This document shows positions 1,721 to 12,142 of a stretch of DNA of 12,142 nucleotides, one piece after another; position 1 is the first letter of the stretch, and the number at the start of each line of letters is the position of its first letter. Both the position numbers and the translations under genes were made by a program. Below the pieces are notes generated by a model, which saw only the letters and a program-made list of their open reading frames with translations, was not told the origin of the DNA and made no database searches. Where the stretch lies: the NCBI GenBank assembly GCA_964590575.1, contig CAZPWM010000095.1, positions 1 to 12,142 of the forward strand. The letters run 5' to 3'. Origin of the DNA: an uncultured archaeon. GTDB lineage: Archaea > Asgardarchaeota > Thorarchaeia > Thorarchaeales > Thorarchaeaceae.

Positions 1721-1726
1721 TTTGTG

Positions 1727-3250
1727 ATGGACCTGAAAGATTGGTCTTGGATAGGCGACTGGACTGGAAGAAGAGCATTGTTAACTCCTAATAGGGAAGC
1801 AATAGTTGACAACATTCAGAAAAAGAGATACACGTTCAAAGATATGGATAAACGCGCAAATCAAGTCGCAAGATTATTACTCGATTCAGGAGTTCGAAAG
1901 GGAAACCGAGTAGCGGTCTATTCCAAGAATAGGTTCGATTTTCTAGACCTCCTCTTTGCTTGCGGAAAGATAGGCGCCATTCTTACCCCCTTCAACATTC
2001 GGCTTACTAAACCTGAGGTTGAACACCTCATAAAAAAAACACAGCCCTCCATTGTTTTCTATGACCCCGATATGGGGACTCAGTTTGATGAACTCCGTTC
2101 CTATCTGGGAAATCAGGACATAGTCGTCATGGGCGATGAAGCATTTGATTCAGATCCCAGTATCTACTCACTCATGACCAAAAAATCTTCCAGAGCAGTA
2201 GAACGACCTGCACTCACTCTGGATGATCCTTACTTGATCGTTTTTACTGGAGGTACTACTGGATTACCCAAGGGTGCTATTCTATCCCATGGTCTGGTAT
2301 TTTGGAACTCAGTTAATACGATTGTTTCATGGGGACTTAGACCAGACGACATCCAACCACTTCTTTTCCCTCTCTTTCATACCGGCGGTATCAATGTTCT
2401 CTTGGTTCCTTTCTATCATTTAGGAGCCAAGTCTATCGTCATGGGCGATTTCGATGTAGATGCGACTTTGAATGTTATTGAGGAAGAGAAATGTTCCATT
2501 GTCATTGCTGTTCCAACAATGTTCAATATGATGTCCGAGTCTACAAATTTCGCAAAGACTAACTTTGACAGTGTTCGTGTCTTTATTAGTGGCGGTGCTC
2601 CCTGTCCTGTGGCGATAATGGAGAAGTACTGGGAACGTGGCAAGATACTCAAGATGGGATATGGTCTTACTGAAGTTGGTCCAAATAATTTCTATCTGCC
2701 AGAGAGCGAGGTTAAGCGAAAACCGTCGAGTGTTGGCTTCCCCGTCTTTCATTGTGATATGAGAGTTGTGGATGATCATGGCAATGATGTGCCAGCAGGT
2801 GACCATGGAGAGTTGCTGCTCCGTGGGCCTCACATTTTCTCTGGGTATTGGGATGAACCTGAAGAAACAGCTAAAACACTCGAGCCTGATGGTTGGGTTC
2901 ATACAGGTGATCTCGTTATGAAAGACGAGGAAGGATTCTATTTCATCACAGGACGTAAAAAAGACATGTTCATCTCTGGAGGTGAGAATATCTATCCCAC
3001 TGAAATTGAAGAACTCCTTTACAAACACCCCTCGGTATTGGAAGCTGCAGTAGTAGGTGTTCCTCATGAGAAGTGGGGCGAGGTGGGGAAAGCAGTCATT
3101 GTATTAAAACCAGGCAAGAGTCTAAGTGAGGAACAGATCCTAGAATATCTTGACGGAAAGCTTGCACGCTACAAAATACCAAAACAATACGAATTTAGAG
3201 ATGAATTACCAAAAAGTGCAGCTGGAAAGATTCTGAAACGCGATTTATAA
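1727..3250 (+). CDS. AMP-forming acyl-CoA synthetase (fatty-acid-CoA ligase / MenE-like ANL family)
   Basis: AMP-binding loop FTGGTTGLPKG, PLFHTGG, GYGLTE, GWVHTGD, GRKKDMFISGGENIYP and terminal lysine motif PKSAAGKILK. ATG 1727 fits SD spacing better than GTG 1724. Confidence 0.9.
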   Translation: MDLKDWSWIGDWTGRRALLTPNREAIVDNIQKKRYTFKDMDKRANQVARLLLDSGVRKGNRVAVYSKNRFDFLDLLFACGKIGAILTPFNIRLTKPEVEHLIKKTQPSIVFYDPDMGTQFDELRSYLGNQDIVVMGDEAFDSDPSIYSLMTKKSSRAVERPALTLDDPYLIVFTGGTTGLPKGAILSHGLVFWNSVNTIVSWGLRPDDIQPLLFPLFHTGGINVLLVPFYHLGAKSIVMGDFDVDATLNVIEEEKCSIVIAVPTMFNMMSESTNFAKTNFDSVRVFISGGAPCPVAIMEKYWERGKILKMGYGLTEVGPNNFYLPESEVKRKPSSVGFPVFHCDMRVVDDHGNDVPAGDHGELLLRGPHIFSGYWDEPEETAKTLEPDGWVHTGDLVMKDEEGFYFITGRKKDMFISGGENIYPTEIEELLYKHPSVLEAAVVGVPHEKWGEVGKAVIVLKPGKSLSEEQILEYLDGKLARYKIPKQYEFRDELPKSAAGKILKRDL

Positions 3251-3271
3251 AATTAGATGAGGTTGATGCTG

Positions 3272-4297
3272 ATGCCAAAGAATACTATCGGAATTGAATC
3301 TATTGGTATATATATCCCAAAAGAACGTCATACAGCTGAATATATCTCAAGCAAGTCCGGAACACCTGTTGAGGTCATTAAGACAAAAATGGGAATGCTT
3401 AGCAAAGCAGTTCCGGGGAAGGATGACCATACCGTCGCAATGGGAGTAAAAGCTGCTAAGATTGCGATTGAGCGGGCAGGAATCGATCCTGCGAAGGATA
3501 TTGATCTTGTGATTTGGGCTGGCGAGGTATATGCTGAACGTCCTATGCAGACTTATGCTATCAAGTTCCAAGGTGAGATTGGAGCGACCAGGGCATGGGC
3601 TTTCGATGTCAACCAGAGATGCGGTACTATTGTTGTTGCCATGATTCTCGCAAAATCACTCATGCAGACTCATGGCTATGAACGTGTCATCATCGGAAGC
3701 GGTTATCGGAATTCAGACCTAATCGATTATGGGAACATAAGAACACGATTCATGCATGACTTGGCTGCTAGCGGAGTTGCTATGATACTTCGTTCCAATT
3801 ACGATAGAAACATCGTATTGGAAGGTAGCGTTATCTCTGATGGCCAGTTTTCTGAGGATGTCTATGTTCCAGCTGGTGGAACAGTTATGCCCATCTCATG
3901 TGATGCAATTGAAAAGGGGTTAATCTACCTCGACGTTACTGATCCTGAAGGTCTCAAACAACGTCTAGACAGATTATCAATGAAGAATTTCATCGCTGTT
4001 GTTGATCAGTCTCTTGAACGTAGCGGATATACTCGAAAGGATATTGATTATTTGGGACTCATTCGGATGAAACGAAGTGCGTTTGAATATGTAGCGAATG
4101 AGCTCGGAGTAGACCCCTATGAGCAATCCACATATTTTGAAGAATGGGGTCACATGGGCCAGAATGATTCAATTGTATCGCTTGAGGAGGGTCTAAAAAG
4201 TGGCAAGATTAAGGATGGAAACATTGTTGTTCTAACTGCAGCAGGAATTGGTTGGTCTTGGAATGCCATGACCATCAAATGGGGCAAGGAGAAATGA
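3272..4297 (+). CDS. 3-oxoacyl-ACP synthase III (FabH/KAS III)-like thiolase-fold condensing enzyme, atypical active site
   Basis: IGIESIGIYIP N-terminus, AFDVNQRCGT with the catalytic Cys, WGHMGQND and GNIVVLTAAGIGWSW C-terminus. ATG 3272 follows GAGGTTGA; alternative starts at 3257 and 3266. Confidence 0.85.
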   Translation: MPKNTIGIESIGIYIPKERHTAEYISSKSGTPVEVIKTKMGMLSKAVPGKDDHTVAMGVKAAKIAIERAGIDPAKDIDLVIWAGEVYAERPMQTYAIKFQGEIGATRAWAFDVNQRCGTIVVAMILAKSLMQTHGYERVIIGSGYRNSDLIDYGNIRTRFMHDLAASGVAMILRSNYDRNIVLEGSVISDGQFSEDVYVPAGGTVMPISCDAIEKGLIYLDVTDPEGLKQRLDRLSMKNFIAVVDQSLERSGYTRKDIDYLGLIRMKRSAFEYVANELGVDPYEQSTYFEEWGHMGQNDSIVSLEEGLKSGKIKDGNIVVLTAAGIGWSWNAMTIKWGKEK

Positions 4298-4725
4298 ACG
4301 AAATGAAAGTTACAAAATATTCGGATATAAAAATGGGTCAATCAGCAGAAGTTGTTCATACCATTACTAAAGAGGACATTCAGGTCTTTGGAGACCTCAG
4401 TGGAGATTACAACCCGCTTCACTTTAATGAAGACTGGGCAAAGACGACCATGTTTGGAGGTCGAATTGCCCATGGTATTCTAACGGTTTCTTTCATAAGT
4501 GCTGCAATTGGTATGCATTTGCCTGGACCTGGTACAATCTATATGAGTCAGAGTATGCGTTTTCTTGGTCCTGTGAGGATTGGTGATACAATCACAGCTC
4601 GTGTAGAAGTAGTCTTGTTGAATGATGAAAAGGAACGAGTGACCTTGAAGACCACTTGTACAAACCAAGATGGAAAAATAGTCATGGATGGAGAAGCGCT
4701 TGTTACATTAATGAAGATGGACTGA
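4294..4725 (+). CDS. MaoC/PhaJ-family (R)-specific enoyl-CoA hydratase (hot-dog fold)
   Basis: Hydratase-2 motif FGDLSGDYNPLH (Asp/His dyad), RIAHG, LPGPG and FLGPVRIGD. ATG 4294 overlaps the upstream stop (ATGA); alternative start at 4303. The track start 4252 lies inside the upstream gene. Confidence 0.88.
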   Translation: MNEMKVTKYSDIKMGQSAEVVHTITKEDIQVFGDLSGDYNPLHFNEDWAKTTMFGGRIAHGILTVSFISAAIGMHLPGPGTIYMSQSMRFLGPVRIGDTITARVEVVLLNDEKERVTLKTTCTNQDGKIVMDGEALVTLMKMD

Positions 4726-4841: not shown

Positions 4842-5744
4842 TTGGCGGAGCAAAAAGAAGACGTCCTTCCTGTCATTCATCTGCGGATTCGTATTTCCAG
4901 ACCCCTTGAGGAAGTTTGGCAAAAGTTTCTGGATCCTGTCATCATGCTTCAATGGCTAGGTGATGAAATCAGTGCAGATGTTCGAGCAGGCGGTACTATC
5001 CGTTTTCTTGGACCCAATGCTCCCACAACGCCTGAGCTTGCTAACTACTGGGACATCAAAGAGGTCAAGGAACAGAAAGTGCTTCTTCTCAGCTGGAGAA
5101 TTATGGGTGTAGATACGTTGCTCGTCATTAGATTCAATCCCATAGGTCCCGGTACAATGATTCAGGTGAATCATGGTGCTGTTCCGGTTTCAGCTCGGAA
5201 TTACCACTTGCCTGAGCATTGGAATCTCCTACTTGCGAATTTTAAGGCAGCAGTCGAACTTGGAGCACCAGCAATACGGTTCGATTTTTCTAATTATCAC
5301 CCTCTGCGAATCACACGATATGACCCTACTGATGTGCGAATTAGTGTCGTCTGCAAAACGCCTCCATCATTGCCATTTGACGTATGGACCAACCCAGAGA
5401 AATTGAAACATTTCATTCGTGCTGATGCTCCAGTGGTAGATCAACAATATGCGGGCATCTATACTTGGTGGGCTGAAGGCAAAGGTCCTGTTGTATTCAA
5501 GAAGATGGTTCAAGACCGTGAACTAGAGTTCTCCTGGGTACATGGTAATGAACCAGAAACCCTTGTTAATGTCCGATTTGAAATGGTCAATGAACATACC
5601 CTAGTCACTCTCCATCATCATGCATTCAGGTCACCTGAGGCTGTGGTGGGTTACGATATCGGTTGGACAGGTATACTTGCTGAACTCAAACTTGTTTGTG
5701 AACTTGGCGAGTCAGGCATCGAGCGGATTAGTGACTGGGGATAA
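4842..5744 (+). CDS. Tandem SRPBCC (AHSA1/START-like) domain protein
   Basis: Two similar halves: ISRPLEEVWQKFLDPVIMLQWL...HWNLLLANFKAAVELG and KTPPSLPFDVWTNPEKLKHF...GWTGILAELKLVCELG. TTG start preceded by GAGGTAGAGG. Confidence 0.78.
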   Translation: MAEQKEDVLPVIHLRIRISRPLEEVWQKFLDPVIMLQWLGDEISADVRAGGTIRFLGPNAPTTPELANYWDIKEVKEQKVLLLSWRIMGVDTLLVIRFNPIGPGTMIQVNHGAVPVSARNYHLPEHWNLLLANFKAAVELGAPAIRFDFSNYHPLRITRYDPTDVRISVVCKTPPSLPFDVWTNPEKLKHFIRADAPVVDQQYAGIYTWWAEGKGPVVFKKMVQDRELEFSWVHGNEPETLVNVRFEMVNEHTLVTLHHHAFRSPEAVVGYDIGWTGILAELKLVCELGESGIERISDWG

Positions 5745-5754
5745 TTGATTTTAC

Positions 5755-6516
5755 TTATACTGCAAAGAGTAGTAGTTCAGGAAATAGAAACCACCACATG
5801 GTGAAAGCAGTTATTATTGGAATGAAGAAATTATCAGTCCACCCAATACTCAGATACTCTGCAATGGTTGAGCAAAGAGCAATAATAATGATTTGCGGTA
5901 GAACAACCAAGATGATGGTGTCAGGAGAGAAGAATGCCAATGAGGTCATAACTGAAAGAATTGTAAAAATAAAAACTCCCATGCTCCCCTCAATAGATTT
6001 ATGGCCATGCATTCGTCTGATAATCTTCCCTCTAAACGGTCGTCCAATTATTTCTCCTGCCGCATCTCCCCAAGAAACTGCAAGGATGGCTGCTACAAAG
6101 ATTTCTGGCCTTTGGAAAAATAAAAGGAACACTGCTCCAAATGAAACGAGCCCCATAAAACCTGAAGCAAATGTGTTGAGTCGGGATTCATCCTCGCGAC
6201 TCCCAGCTATGAGCAAATCCAAGATTAGCTCACTCTTATGAGCCCAAGCGTACATGAGAATCGTCAGGAAAATCCCGGCTGCAAACGCAGGACCGCTAAG
6301 ATTAGAATATACTACTAATGTCAGTCCAATCGTCGTACCCATCGAGATATGAACAAGCTTTCTTGGTTTCCATTTAGACATACCTGAGGCTGCCATATAG
6401 TATGCCATTGTAAGAACCACTGAAACAATCAACCCCGTTGCTATCGCCATGCCGATATCAAGAGGGGATAGTTCCCCAAAGACAAGATCCACCATCTTAG
6501 ACAGCACAGAATACAT
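5755..6516 (-). CDS. CTP-dependent polyprenol/diacylglycerol kinase family membrane protein (phytol kinase VTE5 / dolichol kinase SEC59 / DGK1-like)
   Basis: Several hydrophobic segments plus family motifs RKLVHI, WGDAAGEIIGRPF, KSIEGS and DNFFIP. Alternative start at 6495. Confidence 0.82.
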   Translation of the reverse strand: MYSVLSKMVDLVFGELSPLDIGMAIATGLIVSVVLTMAYYMAASGMSKWKPRKLVHISMGTTIGLTLVVYSNLSGPAFAAGIFLTILMYAWAHKSELILDLLIAGSREDESRLNTFASGFMGLVSFGAVFLLFFQRPEIFVAAILAVSWGDAAGEIIGRPFRGKIIRRMHGHKSIEGSMGVFIFTILSVMTSLAFFSPDTIILVVLPQIIIIALCSTIAEYLSIGWTDNFFIPIITAFTMWWFLFPELLLFAV

Positions 6517-6655
6517 GCCGGTACTATTTCATTATTGTTATTCTGTTGTTAATTGGGTCTTTCGTCCGTTCTTACTCACTTGATAACAGGTAAAATTTTG
6601 AACATTCATCTAGATTTATCTACTAATTGCTATCTCAGATAAGTAGTGATTTTAA

Positions 6656-7564
6656 ATGAGGAATATTCCATTCATTCAGACATCTGTTTTCGTTGACAAA
6701 AGGTATGATTTTGGAGGCAACCAGCTTGCTACTTTTTGGAAAGCTGAAGTGAATAAGACATTGAAAAAGGATGAGATGCAAGGCATCGCGCGAGAGATGA
6801 ATTACTCAGAATCAACATTTGTCTTTGAATCTAAAAGGAAGGATTGTTTGTCGAAAGTAAGGATTTTCACACCTCAAGTTGAACTTCCATTTGCTGGTCA
6901 TCCTACGTTAGGTACCGCATATGCCTTAAGACGAAAGAAGATCGCAGAACCGAAAATCGATAAATTCCGCTTAGAGCTAGGATTAGGTCCAATTGATGTA
7001 GAATTTCTTGGTAAGGAAATAATCAGTATGAAACAGAAGCCACCCGAGTTTCTAGAAATAATGGATAACCCTCGAGCCATAATGAAAGCATTAAGTCTCC
7101 CTGAGAAGTCAGTATCCGAAGATTCCCCGATACAATTTGTTTCAACTGGCAACCCATTTCTGATAATTCCGTTGAAATCTCTTGCATCAGTGCAAAAGGC
7201 ATCTCCGAACTCAGCGTCCATTCTCAAAGCTCTTGACGGCGCAGTTTCACAGGATGTACTAATATTCAGTACTGAAATAGTCCACGCAGACGCGAATGCA
7301 CATGCTCGAGTTTTTGCTCCTTCAGCTGGTGTACTTGAGGACCCTGCAACCGGGAGTGCCGCTGGTCCCCTTGGTGCTTATCTTGAGCATTATGATGTTC
7401 TTGCTTCTCACAGTACGGGTGATGTAATCACTGTTGAACAGGGTTATGAGATGAACAGACCAAGCAAACTCAAAATCCAGCTAGAAAGGAAGAAACAGAA
7501 GATCAATGTCTTTGTTTCTGGGCGAGTAAGGACTACAGCTGAGGGAACGTTCTATTTGAAATAG
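6656..7564 (+). CDS. PhzF-family (diaminopimelate-epimerase-like fold) isomerase
   Basis: GGNQLA, EMNYSESTF with the catalytic Glu, RIFTPQVELPFAGHPTLG, STGNP, EDPATGSAAG and EQGYEMNRPS. Confidence 0.9.
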   Translation: MRNIPFIQTSVFVDKRYDFGGNQLATFWKAEVNKTLKKDEMQGIAREMNYSESTFVFESKRKDCLSKVRIFTPQVELPFAGHPTLGTAYALRRKKIAEPKIDKFRLELGLGPIDVEFLGKEIISMKQKPPEFLEIMDNPRAIMKALSLPEKSVSEDSPIQFVSTGNPFLIIPLKSLASVQKASPNSASILKALDGAVSQDVLIFSTEIVHADANAHARVFAPSAGVLEDPATGSAAGPLGAYLEHYDVLASHSTGDVITVEQGYEMNRPSKLKIQLERKKQKINVFVSGRVRTTAEGTFYLK

Positions 7565-7600: not shown

Positions 7601-7607
7601 CGTACGT

Positions 7608-7644
7608 AGAACTCAACTGAGTAGAAATCTACGTAGTTGATTCT
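7608..7644. promoter_or_regulatory. Nested palindrome, candidate PadR operator
   Basis: AGAA-c-TCAACT-ga-GTAGA-aa-TCTAC-gt-AGTTGA-TTCT: 15 complementary pairs between the TATA-like box and the start codon. Confidence 0.6.
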
Positions 7645-7646
7645 GG

Positions 7647-8189
7647 ATGAGCAAACAGATTAAGTTATTCCTCCCTACGCCTGCAAAGCTCACTCCAATT
7701 CAATTGCTGATATTGATACAGCTACTAAATGCCTCCAAATATGGTTATGAAATTCTTCGAGGCCTTCGTGAAGGATTCAACGGAGCTTGGGAACCAAAAA
7801 CTGGGACAATGTACCCTGCTCTTCAGTCATTAGAGAAAAAAGGACATATCATCAAAAGTTACCAGGGTGAAAAAACTCACTATAGTCTCTCAGACGGAGG
7901 TAGAGCTATACTAGAAGAAATGAGTGATTATGTTGCTGAATATCTCTTGTTTAACTCACGATTTATAGAATCAACAGTAGCTAGCATGCCCCCTCTTTTC
8001 ACTCAAGAAGTATTTAGCAAGATACACGAAGCGGGAATTGATGAGATTCTTCCTGAAACAACAATTCTTGAGGCTGTTCGTGGTCTTCCCAACAAACAGT
8101 TGAGAAGAGCCTTTCTAGAACTACGAAAACAAACACTACTTCGGAAATTGAATCTAGTCAAAACGCAACTAAAGGAGTTGGATTCTTGA
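7647..8189 (+). CDS. PadR-family transcriptional regulator
   Basis: wHTH pattern LLILIQLL...KYGYEI...WEPKTGTMYPALQSLEKKGHI...YSLSDGGR followed by a helical, Leu-rich C-terminal domain. Confidence 0.9.
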   Translation: MSKQIKLFLPTPAKLTPIQLLILIQLLNASKYGYEILRGLREGFNGAWEPKTGTMYPALQSLEKKGHIIKSYQGEKTHYSLSDGGRAILEEMSDYVAEYLLFNSRFIESTVASMPPLFTQEVFSKIHEAGIDEILPETTILEAVRGLPNKQLRRAFLELRKQTLLRKLNLVKTQLKELDS

Positions 8190-9589
8190 AAGAGTATGAT
8201 ATCATAATCGTAGGCGCTGGGCCTGGTGGGTCTCTTGCAGCAAAGGAGGCTGTAGAGAAGGGTCTCAAGACCATCTTCTTTGAACGTGGTCGAAAACCAG
8301 GAGAGAAGAACTCCTCTGGCACCGGTCTGGGCCCACGATTATGGCGTGAATTTGACTTTATGAAAGAACTCAATCCTGAAGTATGCCCATCGATGAGAGC
8401 TGGTGCTGCAGCTCGGAATTACTTTGTCAATACTGAAGGCGAGGTCACCGGGTACATCATGACGAAACCGACAGAATCAGTGACTTATGAGCCTGCAAAA
8501 AGCTGGATTACAATGAACTGTTACCGAAGCGAGTTTGATCCTTGGTTAGCACAGTTTGCAGTTGATGCAGGAGCAGAACTGAAGACATCAACACTTGTCA
8601 CAGGTCTCTTGAAAGAAGATGGCAAAGTTGTTGGAGTTATTGATGAGAAAGGTGAGAGGTACAAGGGTTTAGTAATTGGCGCTGACGGCGCTGTTTCCTT
8701 GGTCGCCCAACAATCGGGGTTAAGACAGAGATGGGAGCAAAAACAAGTTACGATAGTTCCACAGTATGACTTTGAATGCTCTCCTTCCAAGATAGATGAT
8801 ATAATGGGGGACGAGGCATTAGCTGTTTGGTGGTCTGCAACCTTTCCTGCATCTTATCAGGTGTTCTTTAACGATGGGTTCCATGTAGGTCTAGGAAACT
8901 GGATGACATGGTGGGATAAGAACCCACTACATTATCTGAACAAAGTGGTCAATCTGAAGTACTTCAAGAGATTGGTTAGAATCTTGGATGCCAAACCTCG
9001 AGAGTTTCAAGCTCATCTCCTCCCGTGGCAGGGAATGCCACACGATACTCATTCTGACAACGTGATTCTAATAGGCGATGCAGGTGGATTTCCCTGTCCA
9101 TTAGAGGCAGAAGGTATCTATCCAGCAATGGTTACAGGAAGGGCTGCAATTGAAACCGCAGCCGAAGCCATATCTGCAGGTGATACATCCCAAGAGTTCC
9201 TTTCACTCTATGACAAAAAGTGGATGGCAACTTCAGTGGGTGAGGACTTCAAGGCGGGTCCGGAGTTATCAAGCATCTGGAGAGCACTCCCATTCAGTCC
9301 AAAAGAAACTATGTCTTGGTTTGTCCCTATGTTTATGGAAATTATTGGGGGAATCATTGATTGGTCTGAACCACATCCAGTCAGAGTGAGACAGGTTGCA
9401 CGGAGGGTTAAGCGATATCTTCCTCAGGCTGTGCCTTTCATCATGAAAGAAGTAATTCCACTATTGACTGCAATACTGGGTGAAGACAAAATGGATCTTC
9501 TAACAGATCCTGAGAAACTACTAACTGAGATGCCAGAGATTGAAGCAGCGATAACTCAAGCTTTCATGACACCTGATGAGGAGGAATGA
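8186..9589 (+). CDS. FAD-dependent oxidoreductase, FixC / geranylgeranyl-reductase family
   Basis: YDIIIVGAGPGG dinucleotide-binding motif, ERGRKPGEKNSSG (FixC-like), RSEFDPWLA, VIGADG and LIGDAGG..P...EGI. TTG start overlaps the PadR stop; SD AAGGAG at 8172-8177. Confidence 0.85.
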   Translation: MKEYDIIIVGAGPGGSLAAKEAVEKGLKTIFFERGRKPGEKNSSGTGLGPRLWREFDFMKELNPEVCPSMRAGAAARNYFVNTEGEVTGYIMTKPTESVTYEPAKSWITMNCYRSEFDPWLAQFAVDAGAELKTSTLVTGLLKEDGKVVGVIDEKGERYKGLVIGADGAVSLVAQQSGLRQRWEQKQVTIVPQYDFECSPSKIDDIMGDEALAVWWSATFPASYQVFFNDGFHVGLGNWMTWWDKNPLHYLNKVVNLKYFKRLVRILDAKPREFQAHLLPWQGMPHDTHSDNVILIGDAGGFPCPLEAEGIYPAMVTGRAAIETAAEAISAGDTSQEFLSLYDKKWMATSVGEDFKAGPELSSIWRALPFSPKETMSWFVPMFMEIIGGIIDWSEPHPVRVRQVARRVKRYLPQAVPFIMKEVIPLLTAILGEDKMDLLTDPEKLLTEMPEIEAAITQAFMTPDEEE

Positions 9590-9864
9590 AGTGGATGAAA
9601 ATTGACCACAAGAAACTCGTGAAGAGAATTCCTGGTACTGGCAACTTCATCAGTGTAGACAATGAGAAGTGTAATCTCTGTGGACGATGCCTTATTATCT
9701 GTGTTATGAATCTCTGGAAGAAACGCAATGATACAGTGTATATCGTTGATGACTACACCTCATATTGCTTGGAATGTGGAGCATGCTTCCAAGTATGTGA
9801 GAGCGATGCGATAAACTTCAGATTCCCTGCTGGAGGAACTGGAATAGTTTACGAGCAGGGTTAG
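9586..9864 (+). CDS. FixX-like 2x[4Fe-4S] ferredoxin
   Basis: CNLCGRCLIIC and CLECGACFQVC motifs; the C-terminus FRFPAGGTGIVYEQG resembles the FixX tail. ATGA overlap with the upstream stop; alternative start at 9595. Confidence 0.88.
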   Translation: MKWMKIDHKKLVKRIPGTGNFISVDNEKCNLCGRCLIICVMNLWKKRNDTVYIVDDYTSYCLECGACFQVCESDAINFRFPAGGTGIVYEQG

Positions 9865-9866
9865 CA

Positions 9867-9899
9867 ATGACTAAACAAGGACGCGAGGACCAAACATGA
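9867..9899 (+). other. 10-codon mini-ORF MTKQGREDQT bridging the ferredoxin and the FAD oxidoreductase (or a frameshifted N-terminus of the latter)
   Basis: ATG 2 nt after the ferredoxin TAG; its TGA (9897-9899) overlaps ATG 9896 as ATGA. Confidence 0.3.
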
Positions 9900-11329
9900 T
9901 TGCAGCGGTGACCAAGATCGTCGGAGCCGAGAGAGTCTCCAATAAACAGGAAGCACTTGATCAATACACTGGAACAATCTCTCCATCATTAGTTGTCTGG
10001 CCTTTATCAACTGAAGAAGTGGTTGAGCTAGTAGCCTGGGCTAATTCAAACTCAGTTGCACTTGTTCCTGTGAGTTCTGGAAGACCAAGACGCCGGGGTT
10101 CATCTTTTCCAAAAGTGAAGAATTCTGTGATTATTGACCTTAGCAGGATGAATAAGATCATTCGAGTTGATCCTAAGAACAAAGTGGTGATGATTGAACC
10201 CGGCGTAACTTTTGGGCAGTTGATACCTGAGCTAAAAAAGAATGGACTCCGGCCTTTGATGCCATTTCTCCCCAAGGCCTCGAAGTCAGTTCTTGCAAGC
10301 TGTCTTGATAGAGAACCTACAACAATCCCGCGATTTCACTGGGATCTTTCTGATCCACTCCTCTGTACTGAAACTGTGTTTGGTTCTGGTGATACGTTGA
10401 GGACAGGATCTGCAGCAGGTCCTGGTACACTAGAAGAACAGTGGGCTTCAGGGCAAGCTCAGAAGAATCCTCAAGGCCCCTCCCAGTTTGACCCATTTAG
10501 AATAATCCAAGGGTCTCAAGGGACTATCGGTATCACAACTTGGATTTCAATGAAGTGTGAACTTCTGCCAGAAGCGCATGACATCTATCTCATAGGGGCG
10601 GATAGTATTAATGAACTTGAGGCATTCAACTATGCTCTATTGAGAAGGAGACTAGTTGATGAGCACTTTCTGATGAACTCAGTTGCTCTATCAGCTGCCC
10701 TCGACTCAAAGAAGAAGATTCCACATTGGATTTTAGTTCTCGGTCTTTCTGGACATGGAATTCTTGCTCAGGAAGAAATTGAGTATCGGACTGGAGACAC
10801 CTTAGACATCGCAAATGAGATGAACGTGAAACTCACGAGGTCTCTTGGAGATATTAAAGGAGATGACGTAAAATCCCTTCTTAATCGGTCTAGCGGCACT
10901 CCCTATTGGAAATATGCTCCACGGGGTAATTGCAGCGAGGTGATTTTCACAACAACTCTTGATCAGGTTAGCAGTCTATATTCAAATTTCTTAGAGATAG
11001 CAGAACAAGCTAATTTTCCAAAGGAGCAGATTGGTGCTTATGTCCAACCAGTGGTCCAAGGTGTAACCACACACTGCGGATTTGATCTTTACTTTGACCC
11101 AGAGAATGACGAAGAAGTTGAATCAATGAATGCTCTCCTAGACAATGGTCAGCGGAAGCTATTGGATGATGGAGCGTTCTTCAGTAGACCATATGGAAGT
11201 TTCACAGATATAGTGTTTGAACAGACCTCGCCAGGGATGGTCAAGGCGATTCAAAGTGTCAAAGCAATCTTTGACCCAAACAATGTACTGAACCCTGGAA
11301 CTCTCTGCTTCAAGGAGGTGCCTAAATGA
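9896..11329 (+). CDS. FAD-binding oxidoreductase of the VAO/PCMH (GlcD-like) family, substrate unknown
   Basis: VVWPLSTEEV, IDLSRMNKII, IEPGVTFGQL, GDTLRTGS, GSQGTIGITT and C-terminal IFDPNNVLNPG. SD-like GAGGA at 9885-9889. Confidence 0.87.
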   Translation: MIAAVTKIVGAERVSNKQEALDQYTGTISPSLVVWPLSTEEVVELVAWANSNSVALVPVSSGRPRRRGSSFPKVKNSVIIDLSRMNKIIRVDPKNKVVMIEPGVTFGQLIPELKKNGLRPLMPFLPKASKSVLASCLDREPTTIPRFHWDLSDPLLCTETVFGSGDTLRTGSAAGPGTLEEQWASGQAQKNPQGPSQFDPFRIIQGSQGTIGITTWISMKCELLPEAHDIYLIGADSINELEAFNYALLRRRLVDEHFLMNSVALSAALDSKKKIPHWILVLGLSGHGILAQEEIEYRTGDTLDIANEMNVKLTRSLGDIKGDDVKSLLNRSSGTPYWKYAPRGNCSEVIFTTTLDQVSSLYSNFLEIAEQANFPKEQIGAYVQPVVQGVTTHCGFDLYFDPENDEEVESMNALLDNGQRKLLDDGAFFSRPYGSFTDIVFEQTSPGMVKAIQSVKAIFDPNNVLNPGTLCFKEVPK

Positions 11330-12142
11330 CCTTAGACCAATTTGAAGAGATGATGGACAGCTGCGTTCGTTGTTCCAAGTGTAAGTACATCCCACAGATA
11401 GCGATCAAGAGCCAGAGATTCTCTCACATATGCCCATCTGTCCAATATTACAATTTCCACGCATACTCAGGCGGCGGAAGAATGATCATGGCAAATGCCT
11501 ACCATAAAGGTCGGCTTGAATGGACTCCTGAGATGCTTGATGTTCTTTATCAATGCACCAACTGTGGTGGTTGCGAGGTTTCATGCAAGTGGGTGTATGA
11601 CTTTGAACCAAATGAGGTCATTCACGAACTTCGAGTACTAGCTGTCGAGTCGGGTGCTGGACCGATGCCTGCACACAAAAAGTACATCGAGCTTGTGAAG
11701 AGGGACAATAATCCCTATGGAGAACCCATCGAGAAAAGGTCCGATTGGCTTACTGATGACATTGAAGTTGATGAGGATTCTTCGACCCTCTACTTTGTGG
11801 GATGCACTGCAGCTCTCCGTAGGGAAGAGATAGCACAGAGTACTGCGAGAGTTCTCAATGCAGCTAACGAGCCCTTCAGAATTCTTGGTTCTGACGAAAT
11901 TTGTTGTGGAAGTCCAGTCTATCGAGTGGGTGACAGGAGGAGTGCAATAGACATCATGAAGGGGAATGTCGAACTCTTCAGAGAGAAGGGTGTGAAACGA
12001 ATCATCACAAGTTGCGCTGGTTGTTATAATATGTTTAAGACAGAGTATCCCCGATTTGTTGAGCACGACTTTGAAGTGATACACACCTCTCAGCTTATGG
12101 ATGAGCTACTGAAACAAGGTCGACTGAAACCAAGGAAGGAGG
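11326..12142 (+). CDS. HdrD/GlpC-like (Fe-S)-binding protein with a CCG domain, 3' truncated by the window edge
   Basis: Not in the ORF track. Manual translation gives MTLDQFEEMMDSCVRCSKC...ICPS...CTNCGGCEVSC...YFVGC...EICCG...ITSCAGC..., open for 272 codons to the window end. ATGA overlap with the upstream stop; SD AGGAGGTG at 11313-11320. Confidence 0.9.
   Translation, partial: MTLDQFEEMMDSCVRCSKCKYIPQIAIKSQRFSHICPSVQYYNFHAYSGGGRMIMANAYHKGRLEWTPEMLDVLYQCTNCGGCEVSCKWVYDFEPNEVIHELRVLAVESGAGPMPAHKKYIELVKRDNNPYGEPIEKRSDWLTDDIEVDEDSSTLYFVGCTAALRREEIAQSTARVLNAANEPFRILGSDEICCGSPVYRVGDRRSAIDIMKGNVELFREKGVKRIITSCAGCYNMFKTEYPRFVEHDFEVIHTSQLMDELLKQGRLKPRKE

Follow-up and report, generated by a model that had tools for sequence, protein, structure and literature searches.

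The locus studied here raises the question of what a FixC-like flavoprotein and a FixX-like ferredoxin do in an archaeal operon that carries no genes for an electron transfer flavoprotein (ETF), and with which enzyme they share it. The window, a stretch of 12,142 nucleotides, is the entire contig C95 of a Thorarchaeota genome (G000; 3.4 Mb in 194 contigs, 91% complete). Five co-directional genes extend across positions 7647-12142, and an earlier note, made from the sequence alone, had described them as a PadR-headed, tightly coupled redox operon. All five lie where the note had placed them, and Pfam and NCBIfam matches confirmed the identities it had proposed: a PadR-family regulator, a FixC-like flavoprotein, a FixX-like ferredoxin (Fdx), a flavoprotein of the VAO (vanillyl-alcohol oxidase)/PCMH (p-cresol methylhydroxylase) superfamily (VAO1) and an HdrD-like Fe-S protein with CCG domains (CCG protein). 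We consider the chances about even that this PadR-repressed operon encodes a soluble multi-flavin, multi-Fe-S oxidoreductase, in which a GlcDEF-like unit of VAO1, the CCG protein and a second VAO-type flavoprotein (VAO2) is joined to the FixC-like/FixX-like pair.

The four redox genes of the note are real but do not make up the complete set; VAO2 and a CrtC-like gene follow them, so that at least six genes belong to it. Close relatives of G000, at 89-91% protein identity, are Thorarchaeota. In relatives, a second VAO-family gene lies about 1.3 kb 3' of VAO1. The note had advised to look rightwards for a second FAD oxidoreductase, and in G000 this gene was indeed found, on contig C185 (3,092 nt). 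Mapping by tblastn on six loci together with Pfam gave the full order in the intact relatives as PadR, FixC-like, Fdx, VAO1, CCG, VAO2, CrtC-like and a 176-aa open reading frame (ORF), with sizes of 423 aa for the CCG protein (two CCG domains), 526-527 aa for VAO2 and 363 aa for the CrtC-like protein. The 176-aa ORF after the CrtC-like gene had no family match. C185 agrees with this order from nucleotide 507 on, while its first 506 nucleotides are unrelated to the locus of any relative. When contigs of four public DNA runs were aligned to C185, none spanned position 507. C185:507-1076 is matched by a contig of run X1 (841 nt) that differs from C185:1-506 further upstream. Translated in frame, its 30 letters ahead of 507 give PCHLGRMSEP and so include (D)PCHLGR, a motif that is invariant in the second CCG domain. 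Because the X1 contig diverges at 507 and reads into a CCG motif, C185:1-506 is probably a chimeric assembly join, and the CCG gene would begin in the window and end on C185, with a gap of about 19 codons (about 57 nt) between the two contigs. The cluster as assembled in this way encodes three FAD-binding proteins, and six Fe-S clusters are predicted for its products, of which Fdx would hold two and the CCG protein four.

Table 1. Features of the operon and its upstream region in the window (contig C95), and the presumed continuation on contig C185 of the same genome (G000).
Feature	Position	Strand	Basis
TATA-like box TTGATATATAA	7590..7600	+	read from sequence, 82-nt gap between PhzF-family gene and PadR gene
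Two tandem 12-bp palindromes, putative PadR operators	7606..7632	+	direct repeat D1; inverted repeats I1, I2, I4
PadR-family transcriptional regulator, 180 aa	7647..8189	+	PF03551 3e-13, 50 bits, cut-off 27
FixC-like FAD flavoprotein (GGR/FixC superfamily), 467 aa, TTG start	8186..9589	+	structure, tree, motifs
FixX-like 2x[4Fe-4S] ferredoxin (Fdx), 92 aa (ATG 9586) or 89 aa (ATG 9595)	9586..9864	+	Fer4 families
VAO1, VAO/PCMH-superfamily FAD flavoprotein, 477 aa	9896..11329	+	FAD_binding_4 (PF01565) 1.9e-17, FAD-oxidase_C (PF02913) 6.7e-5
CCG protein (HdrD/GlcF/EtfD-like Fe-S subunit), first 272 of ~423 aa	11326..12142 (ORF to 12141)	+	PF02754, PF13183
Rest of CCG gene	G000:C185:507-902		tblastn and independent run X1 contig
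VAO2, 527 aa	G000:C185:906-2486		FAD_binding_4 (PF01565) only
CrtC-like gene, start only	G000:C185:2483-3091		

The three 4-nt gene overlaps that the note had listed are all present in the sequence (TTGA 8186-8189, ATGA 9586-9589, ATGA 11326-11329), and the orthologues of the FixC-like protein share the N-terminal MKEYD with the window protein. For Fdx, a start at the second ATG (9595) is more likely, because GGAGGA at 9580-9585 lies 9 nt ahead of this codon and most Fdx orthologues begin there with MKI(D/E). The junction to the FixC-like gene would then be a 5-nt gap and not an overlap.

Conservation of the gene set was analysed by scanning one genome per species with a VAO2 alignment, which yielded 70 loci onto which the cluster proteins were then mapped; genes in GC-rich bacterial loci were taken from lists of all ORFs and Pfam. 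Asgard archaea of the Thor, Atabeyarchaeia, Jord, Frey, Hermod, Hod and Loki types accounted for 33 loci, and the other 37 were bacterial (Actinomycetota, Chloroflexota, Desulfobacterota, Spirochaetota and others) or from Hadarchaeota. Of the 33 Asgard loci, 30 had VAO1-CCG-VAO2 in this order and three ended at a contig edge upstream of CCG. Outside Asgard the same order was seen in 20 of 37 loci, with CCG-VAO2 only in five and VAO2 alone in twelve. A FixC-like gene, accompanied by Fdx where the contig allows, was found in 16/33 Asgard loci, co-directional and upstream in seven Thorarchaeota loci and divergent upstream in nine loci of the Loki/Hod/Hermod type. The pair was also found in 5/37 non-Asgard loci, always downstream. 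CrtC-like genes were present in 16 of the 70 loci. The family of VAO2-type proteins is small: in a set of 1.84 billion clusters at 50% identity, a threshold of E <= 1e-30 gave 173 representatives, while 1e-10 gave 817 and 1e-3 gave 4,660.

The linkage was also apparent in a sample of 41 related genomes. VAO1 had a match (E <= 1e-85) in 21 genomes including G000, and the FixC-like protein (E <= 1e-60) at 19 places in 18 genomes. At 17 of these 19 places the FixC-like gene directly adjoins the VAO1 orthologue. The exceptions are G006, where the two are on different contigs and VAO1 is cut at a contig end, and G036, where a protein of 44% identity is encoded about 666 kb away. This adjacency is more than chance. 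Taken together, the gene set is conserved, as a cluster search suggested in the note was meant to establish, and the data show that the FixC/FixX-type pair co-evolved with the VAO-CCG-VAO core.

Individual loci depart from this layout. In an Actinomycetota metagenome-assembled genome (MAG; L081:460-11091) there are two tandem VAO2-FixC-like-Fdx units without a CCG or VAO1 gene, followed by two Amino_oxidase genes of the phytoene-desaturase type; this layout suggests that a VAO2-type subunit can talk to FixC/FixX directly. In a proteobacterial MAG (L065:11794-14845) VAO2 and the FixC-like gene are separated by three genes, which encode a large subunit of the methylmalonyl-CoA-mutase type, a B12-binding subunit and a MeaB GTPase; etfAB follows at some distance downstream, and TetR regulators flank the region on either side. 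In a Loki-type MAG a response-regulator gene is located between VAO1 and CCG (L041:7633-8505), and a gene for a Ras-family small GTPase lies just past the divergent FixC-like/Fdx pair (L041:3486-4046).

The note had not recognised the combination as a characterised system. Biochemically this is true, yet the VAO-FeS-VAO core came into print in 2026 as a presumed GlcDEF-like heterotrimer. As described in the text of Musat et al. 2026 (PMC13416013), the proteins BzS1_12970/80/90 (54.5, 46.5 and 65.8 kDa) of a sulfate reducer that degrades benzene account for roughly one fifth of its proteome and are encoded in the order FAD, FeS, FAD, where subunit 1 has an oxidase C-domain and subunit 3 the PCMH-type FAD domain only. 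Homologous 'Magic' proteins #24-26 of Ca. Anaerobenzenivorax ORM2a were modelled as a GlcDEF-like heterotrimer, with two incomplete Cys motifs in the Fe-S subunit #25, according to the text of Toth et al. 2026 (PMC13101534). Neither text mentions Asgard or archaeal homologues of the heterotrimer or FixC, although the supplementary trees and synteny figures might show archaeal homologues (PMC13416013, PMC13101534). In the result listings of our literature searches there was no description of the Asgard combination of a FixC-like protein with VAO-CCG-VAO.

The assignment of the flavoprotein as 'FixC/GGR-like' was examined with its predicted structure (pLDDT 88). Of the solved structures, FixC (7koe_C) was matched best by Foldseek (E 4.2e-30, root-mean-square deviation (rmsd) 3.5 Å) and by VIA-align (Z 41.9, 415 of 438 residues aligned, rmsd 2.8 Å). 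The GGR of Thermoplasma (TaGGR, 3oz2) had a Foldseek E of 1.4e-27 with an rmsd of 6.6 Å and a VIA-align Z of 39.5 over 370 aligned residues, and that of Sulfolobus (SaGGR, 3atq) an E of 2.0e-22 with 8.5 Å and a Z of 36.4. Mammalian ETF-QO (2gmh) was not among the best 50 Foldseek matches and had a VIA-align Z of 26.4. By the model, FixC is the closest structure, including the C-terminal helical region, and the GGRs follow closely. By family profiles the protein scored 134.1 bits against TIGR02032 (GG-red-SF; cut-off 158.8), and 77.5 and 59.1 bits against the FixC families NF007542 (cut-off 610) and NF007450 (cut-off 466). G000 has 11 GG-red-SF matches, nine of which exceed the cut-off; the FixC-like protein does not.

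Archaeal GGRs are defined by the motifs GxGxxG, RxxFD, LxGD and PxxYxWxFP together with a catalytic cysteine, Cys47, that is present in all of them and essential in the Sulfolobus enzyme, as stated in the text of a 2024 review (PMC10821996). The FAD motifs are present in the FixC-like protein as GAGPGG (10-15), YRSEFD (113-118) and LIGD (295-298). The catalytic cysteine is not, a serine being aligned with the cysteine of the canonical paralogue of the same genome. The position near it is threonine in the window protein and C, T, S, F or A elsewhere in the clade. PxxYxWxFP is only partially kept (PASYQVFFN), and the Pfam family GGR_cat (PF22578) did not match the protein at E <= 0.001 while it matched two paralogues of the same genome, on contigs C7 (1.3e-11) and C5 (6.4e-19). 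In a maximum-likelihood tree, from which L070 was left out, 21 cluster-linked FixC-like proteins formed a clade (100/100) on a long stem that excludes the 10 other GGR paralogues of the genome. The 16 Asgard copies of this clade group together (100/99), and their sister is a bacterial group that includes L065 and L066, two loci with etfAB, and one of the two copies of L081, a locus without an ETF match. Hence, of the double name in the note, the FixC part stands by virtue of the best structure, and the GGR part is weaker.

The neighbouring Fdx supports a FixX-type partner. Its two CxxCxxCxxxC motifs have all eight cysteines in each of 19 sequences, and the C-terminal FxYPxGGxG tail is kept. 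The Fdx profile matched FixX (7koe_D, 92 aa) with an E of 2.5e-9, positions 22-89 against 29-92, colinear to the C-terminus; in the same search polyferredoxins outscored FixX via their repeated domains.

These results bear on the possibility that the operon modifies prenyl chains, i.e. that a FixC/GGR-family enzyme with its ferredoxin reduces isoprenoid C=C bonds of a lipid, polyprenol, quinone side chain or carotenoid-like compound, that the CrtC-like protein hydrates such bonds, and that VAO-CCG-VAO supplies electrons or oxidises further. A GGR plus a ferredoxin is known from M. acetivorans. According to the text of PMC10821996, archaea have such pairs. The VIA-align Z values of the two GGRs are only slightly under that of FixC and the RxxFD and LxGD motifs are kept. 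In addition, the CrtC-like protein (orthologue of L014) matched the N-terminal lipocalin domain of CrtC (PF07143) with 36.6 bits at a cut-off of 22.5, its Atlas neighbours carry CrtC/DA_N families, and phytoene-desaturase-type genes follow the L081 units. On the other hand, the equivalent of Cys47 is serine or threonine in the window protein and variable in the clade, the remaining GGR signatures are partial, absent or below cut-off, and the nearest bacterial relatives in the tree include proteins from loci with etfAB, as would be the case for FixC. CrtC-like genes are moreover confined to less than a quarter of the loci. Thus we regard prenyl-chain modification as unlikely, though worth keeping in mind. 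Among the CrtC-like proteins, the Loki-type and Atabeyarchaeia orthologues matched DA_N only, with about 26-27 bits at a cut-off of 27, and against solved structures the CrtC-like protein had no meaningful sequence match, the best being an unrelated protein at E 0.023.

The note had stated that no ETF was in view and had advised to check for etfAB immediately downstream. No ETF genes were found in the window, on C185 or in the loci of the intact relatives. In a tblastn search of the 70 loci with the ETF proteins of the window's genome, L070 and L066, none of the 33 Asgard loci had an etfAB pair, nor was there an NAD(P)H-binding module. Pairs of etfAB were present in 5/37 non-Asgard loci (L059, L065, L066, L070 and, from Hadarchaeota, L078), and the bacterial loci L065, L066 and L070 combine them with a FixC-like gene; in L070 and L066, etfA and etfB are located between or beside VAO1-CCG-VAO2 and FixC-Fdx. 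The only etfB-etfA pair of G000 is on contig C63 at the end of an Hdr/FlpD-type cluster (G000:C63:751-11949, locus L101), and its EtfA carries an N-terminal 2x[4Fe-4S] ferredoxin domain. Thus the statement of the note holds in cis, and the absence of ETF is a real and general feature of the Asgard version of the system, at least in cis. The C63 cluster further encodes two HdrC/HdrB-like pairs, HdrA-like proteins and two proteins with FlpD/MvhD domains.

Would the system then perform flavin-based electron bifurcation, confurcation or internal recycling, its three flavins and six Fe-S clusters splitting or merging electron pairs between ferredoxin as low-potential carrier and an acceptor of high potential? 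FixABCX and Ldh-EtfAB would be the models, and the part of ETF would fall to a VAO-type flavoprotein or to an ETF acting in trans. FixC and FixX are part of a known bifurcating complex (7koe), three bacterial loci (L070, L066, L065) bring VAO1-CCG-VAO2, EtfAB and FixC-Fdx together, and the EtfBA of G000 with its ferredoxin-fused EtfA belongs to an Hdr cluster. For the homologous heterotrimer, electron cycling of a bifurcation-like or redox-neutral kind is considered in the two papers on benzene degraders (text of PMC13416013 and PMC13101534). Yet neither an NAD(P)H-binding module nor ETF is encoded in any of the 33 Asgard loci, and GlcDEF, the nearest characterised heterotrimer, is described as non-bifurcating in the text of PMC13101534. 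We think that bifurcation is quite improbable.

A FixC-like protein may also be considered together with a lipophilic acceptor. In G000 a MenA/UbiA-like prenyltransferase (TIGR00751, 133.6 bits, cut-off 102) is encoded near a GGR paralogue, and a MenG/UbiE-type methyltransferase (183.9 bits, cut-off 158.35) adjoins another GGR-superfamily paralogue (G000:C2:67942-69787). The argument that the FixC-like protein cannot be a quinone reductase for lack of a quinone was dropped, as both matches are above their cut-offs. The prenyltransferase belongs to the region G000:C5:6000-22000 (L103), which also encodes a canonical GGR (GGR_cat 6e-19), a polyprenyl synthetase and an HdrD-like CCG protein. These are followed by a 646-aa protein in which a GlcD-type flavoprotein is fused to a NuoB-like domain (Oxidored_q6), and by NuoA/J/C-like genes. 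From this arrangement one may suspect that the Thorarchaeota genome provides for a prenylated membrane carrier and for a complex-I-like module fed by a flavoprotein.

The core itself consists of VAO1, the CCG protein and VAO2 with predicted masses of 52.5, 47.8 and 59.1 kDa. The CCG protein has two cubane and two CCG motifs with every cysteine invariant or at least 90% conserved in 40 sequences (C13/16/19/36, C77/80/83/87, C160/193/194/230/233 and C283/350/351/388/391). Its best match in the PDB was EtfD (9ojn) at 1.1e-34, and in a 423-aa orthologue there was no 19-residue window with a Kyte-Doolittle hydropathy of 1.6 or more. Complex prediction for CCG, VAO2 (46-526) and Fdx with the proteins of the intact relative locus L022, run without controls, gave no answer (score 0.00 against a mark of 0.32) and speaks neither for nor against an assembly. 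Selenocysteine was considered for in-frame stops in five tblastn-derived references and rejected; these are the genes' own stop codons, overrun by the alignments.

For VAO1 the fold was compared with a predicted structure of pLDDT 86.5. In the Foldseek search PCMH, VAO-type oxidases and mouse D-lactate dehydrogenase (LDHD) scored equally (TM 0.75-0.82 at about 20% identity), so that 4-phenol oxidoreductases and D-lactate dehydrogenase were not separated. The best sequence matches of both VAO1 and VAO2 were p-cresol methylhydroxylase and eugenol/vanillyl-alcohol oxidases, in the FAD domain only. In metal-dependent D-2-hydroxyacid dehydrogenases of the LDHD/LctD type the Glu-His of the C-terminal GEHG motif is metal-binding or catalytic, and in 4-phenol oxidoreductases a C-terminal Tyr-Arg pair binds the phenolate. 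In a C-terminal profile of VAO1, GEHG of mouse LDHD aligned with RPYG, its Arg and Pro being invariant in 38 VAO1 sequences; this alignment is approximate and weak (E 6e-3) and anchored by K..DP..NPGK. Likewise, VYR of PCMH aligned approximately (E 7e-4) with FSR, the Arg being invariant and the Tyr replaced by Ser. As far as these alignments go, VAO1 is without the full catalytic signature of either of its nearest characterised subfamilies. The NCBIfam models of the glycolate dehydrogenase subunits scored 55.7 bits for GlcD (TIGR00387, cut-off 567.9), 26.7 for GlcE (NF008439, cut-off 284) and 27.2 for GlcF (NF008434, cut-off 333, with the 272-aa fragment).

The likeness of the core to the 'Magic'/BzS1 heterotrimer in its three-gene architecture and sizes suggests as another possibility the activation or conversion of an unreactive aromatic compound or hydrocarbon, as was proposed there. 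PadR-family regulators are known sensors of phenolic compounds, the best sequence matches of both VAO proteins are p-cresol methylhydroxylase and eugenol/vanillyl-alcohol oxidases, as named above, and DNA of the operon was present in 14 public runs including salt-marsh and sediment metagenomes (DNA only). Against this, the Tyr of the PCMH Tyr-Arg pair is Ser in the VAO1 family, and acyl-CoA synthetase, hot-dog hydratase and beta-oxidation genes are not conserved beside the Asgard operon. Distant homologues (23-42% identity) in organisms that do not degrade benzene probably serve other functions according to the text of Musat et al. (PMC13416013), and even for benzene the function was inferred from protein abundance only. 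We therefore hold this possibility to be very improbable. An ordinary glycolate or D-lactate (2-hydroxyacid) dehydrogenase of the GlcDEF or Dld-HdrD type is scarcely credible: the two-flavoprotein-plus-GlcF-like architecture, the almost equal Foldseek score of mouse D-lactate dehydrogenase and the C-terminal K..DPnn.lNPGK motif typical of FAD-oxidase_C proteins would agree with it, but the NCBIfam scores are far under the cut-offs, the Glu-His pair is lost in the invariant RPYG (by the weak alignment at E 6e-3), the VAO2-type family is small, and lactate or glycolate loci are not characterised by PadR control or by partners of the CrtC-like and FixC-like kinds.

The region upstream of PadR was inspected for elements of control. 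Two tandem palindromes are sited between the TATA-like box and the PadR start codon, an imperfect one, GTAGAACTCAAC, at 7606-7617 and a perfect one, GTAGAAATCTAC, at 7621-7632, with starts 15 bp apart. Both are of the form GTAGAAnTCnAC (tandem GTAGAAnTCTAC sites). The GTAGAAnTCnAC pattern and an A/T-rich box like TTGATATATAA are each kept in six of seven orthologous Thorarchaeota upstream regions; the seventh, L023, did not align. The box is a candidate promoter element and the palindromes are putative operators to which PadR may bind, a layout that fits an autoregulated PadR operon. PadR orthologues (44-74% identity) head the cluster in 7 of the 70 loci, all of the Thorarchaeota type. With its tight junctions and conserved upstream elements the description as a PadR-headed operon was well founded, and two features, the PadR gene and the putative operators, suggest that the pathway is inducible.

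Our proposal of a soluble oxidoreductase in which the core is joined to the FixC-like/FixX-like pair may be spelled out as follows. VAO1, CCG and VAO2 would assemble as a GlcDEF-like heterotrimer, in which the CCG protein, with two cubane and two HdrB-type non-cubane [4Fe-4S] clusters, would wire VAO1 to VAO2. A hydrophobic organic substrate, which the CrtC-like lipocalin protein may bind or hydrate, would be dehydrogenated at one of the VAO-type flavins. The electrons would then travel via the Fe-S clusters of CCG to the FixX-like ferredoxin and on to the FAD of the FixC-like protein. The final acceptor would be lipophilic and could be a quinone-like carrier with a prenyl chain or else a C=C bond. 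Three features, namely the CrtC-like protein, the PadR regulator and the FixC/GGR fold, suggest a class of substrate, a hydrophobic one, rather than a particular compound. Of the interpretation in the note, the gene identities, the PadR-headed operon, the absence of ETF in cis, the conserved gene set and the second FAD oxidoreductase are thus supported, whereas oxidation of an aromatic or hydrophobic substrate by the VAO-type enzyme and electron flow through the Fe-S protein and Fdx to the FixC-like enzyme stay proposals.

Several observations weigh against this proposal. At least 8 of the 33 Asgard loci (L025, L027, L031, L032, L036, L045, L049, L052) have the core without a FixC-like gene in several kb of flank, therefore the core does not need the FixC-like protein. 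VAO1 is without both catalytic signatures, so the type of reaction, a dehydrogenation, is itself an assumption. The ETF encoded elsewhere in the genome could act in trans. As to a quinone-like acceptor, the 91%-complete genome had no MenD and no MqnA/D match, and MenB was below its cut-off. Membrane segments were predicted in none of the eight cluster proteins. The likeness to the 'Magic'/BzS1 heterotrimer is one of published order, domains and masses. Finally, no RNA run was listed among the 14 runs with operon DNA.

A more far-reaching version would be that the ETF-less FixC/FixX pair, wired to the two-flavoprotein/HdrD-like module, forms a hitherto unrecognised enzyme of five subunits, soluble, equipped with six Fe-S clusters and three flavins, widespread in Asgard archaea and switched on via PadR by its substrate, and that this enzyme bifurcates or internally recycles electrons to activate inert hydrophobic or aromatic compounds without oxygen. 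We view this version as decidedly unlikely. If true, it would represent the chemistry that is now proposed for anaerobic benzene activation, for which the VAO-FeS-VAO family has just been put forward as the long-sought candidate with no member characterised. Independently of this, the architecture is conserved across Asgard lineages and the FixC/FixX pair was recruited repeatedly, so that the presence or absence of ETF beside FixC/FixX provides natural variants for tracing the entry and exit of electrons. The conserved putative PadR operator offers a practical way to the substrate of the operon via ligand screening. For Thorarchaeota, usually read as simple fermenters, the operon suggests a defined catabolic redox capability that is possibly linked to a membrane carrier.

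The remainder of the window contains a tight unit at 1724-4725 of three genes. The first encodes a 508-aa acyl-CoA ligase, another a condensing enzyme like KAS-III/FabH (414 bits with NF005308, cut-off 315), and the third a hot-dog dehydratase of the MaoC type. The unit was considered as a part of the system and rejected; it resembles the acyl-CoA synthetase and hot-dog genes next to 'Magic', but other Thorarchaeota loci do not keep it next to the operon. Between these acyl-CoA genes and PadR, at 4842-7564, a 300-aa protein with two AHSA1/SRPBCC domains and a PhzF-family isomerase are encoded, and a 253-aa ORF on the minus strand of this segment had no Pfam or NCBIfam match.

Five known systems share parts of the cluster, and a comparison shows how it differs from each of them. 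The CCG protein has its best solved-structure match in EtfD and shares with it the four cluster-binding domains. Mycobacterial EtfD (9ojn), as far as the text of PMC13083937 describes it, uses two [4Fe-4S] and two CCG domains as an electron wire, is anchored in the membrane by five helices with a haem b and ends in a disordered tail of some length; its first CC pair is C-T, which results in a linear [3Fe-4S] cluster (PMC13083937). The protein of the operon in contrast is soluble, comprises about 423 aa and has both CC pairs intact as in HdrB. With the archaeal GGRs the FixC-like protein has the superfamily fold, the GxGxxG, RxxFD and LxGD motifs and a neighbouring small ferredoxin gene in common, but it is set apart by the missing Cys47 equivalent, the partial PxxYxWxFP, the GGR_cat and TIGR02032 results and its separate clade. 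FixC-type paralogues that adjoin ferredoxin and 'FAD-binding protein' genes, e.g. Saci_0316, are mentioned in the text of PMC10821996.

FixABCX/EtfABCX of Thermotoga maritima, an electron-bifurcating complex by the title of entry 7koe, is similar in that the FixC-like protein fits chain C best and the adjacent Fdx is about as long as FixX, with which it shares the two 4-Cys motifs and the tail at the C-terminus; L065, L066 and L070 even combine the FixC-like gene with etfAB. In the 33 Asgard loci, however, FixA and FixB are missing, the identity to 7koe_C is about 22%, and VAO-CCG-VAO is the neighbour instead. E. coli GlcDEF likewise consists of two VAO-superfamily flavoproteins and an Fe-S subunit with an N-terminal 2x[4Fe-4S] and two CCG domains. 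The order in the operon is D-F-E-like, both flavoproteins are full-size (477 and 527 aa), and GEHG is replaced by RPYG in VAO1.

The closest parallel is the 'Magic'/BzS1 heterotrimer, which is biochemically uncharacterised as well and has the same order FAD, FeS, FAD and the same kinship to GlcDEF and to VAO/PCMH proteins. By the published descriptions the domains agree, with FAD_binding_4 and an FAD-oxidase C-domain in the first flavoprotein, FAD_binding_4 only in the third subunit and two CCG domains in the Fe-S subunit, and the masses of the Asgard core are similar to those of BzS1. Differences are seen in the Fe-S subunit, where 'Magic' #25 is reported to be without some of the cysteines while the Asgard protein keeps all those of its CCG motifs, and in the surroundings. 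The published benzene clusters are flanked by genes for acyl-CoA synthetase, hot-dog hydratase, CoA-transferase, beta-oxidation and TetR, whereas the Asgard operon, in an archaeal host, has PadR, the FixC-like/FixX-like pair and the CrtC-like protein as neighbours. Thus we favor the view of the system as an Asgard-wide, ETF-less, FixC/FixX-coupled and PadR-controlled version of the GlcDEF-like 'Magic'/BzS1 heterotrimer.

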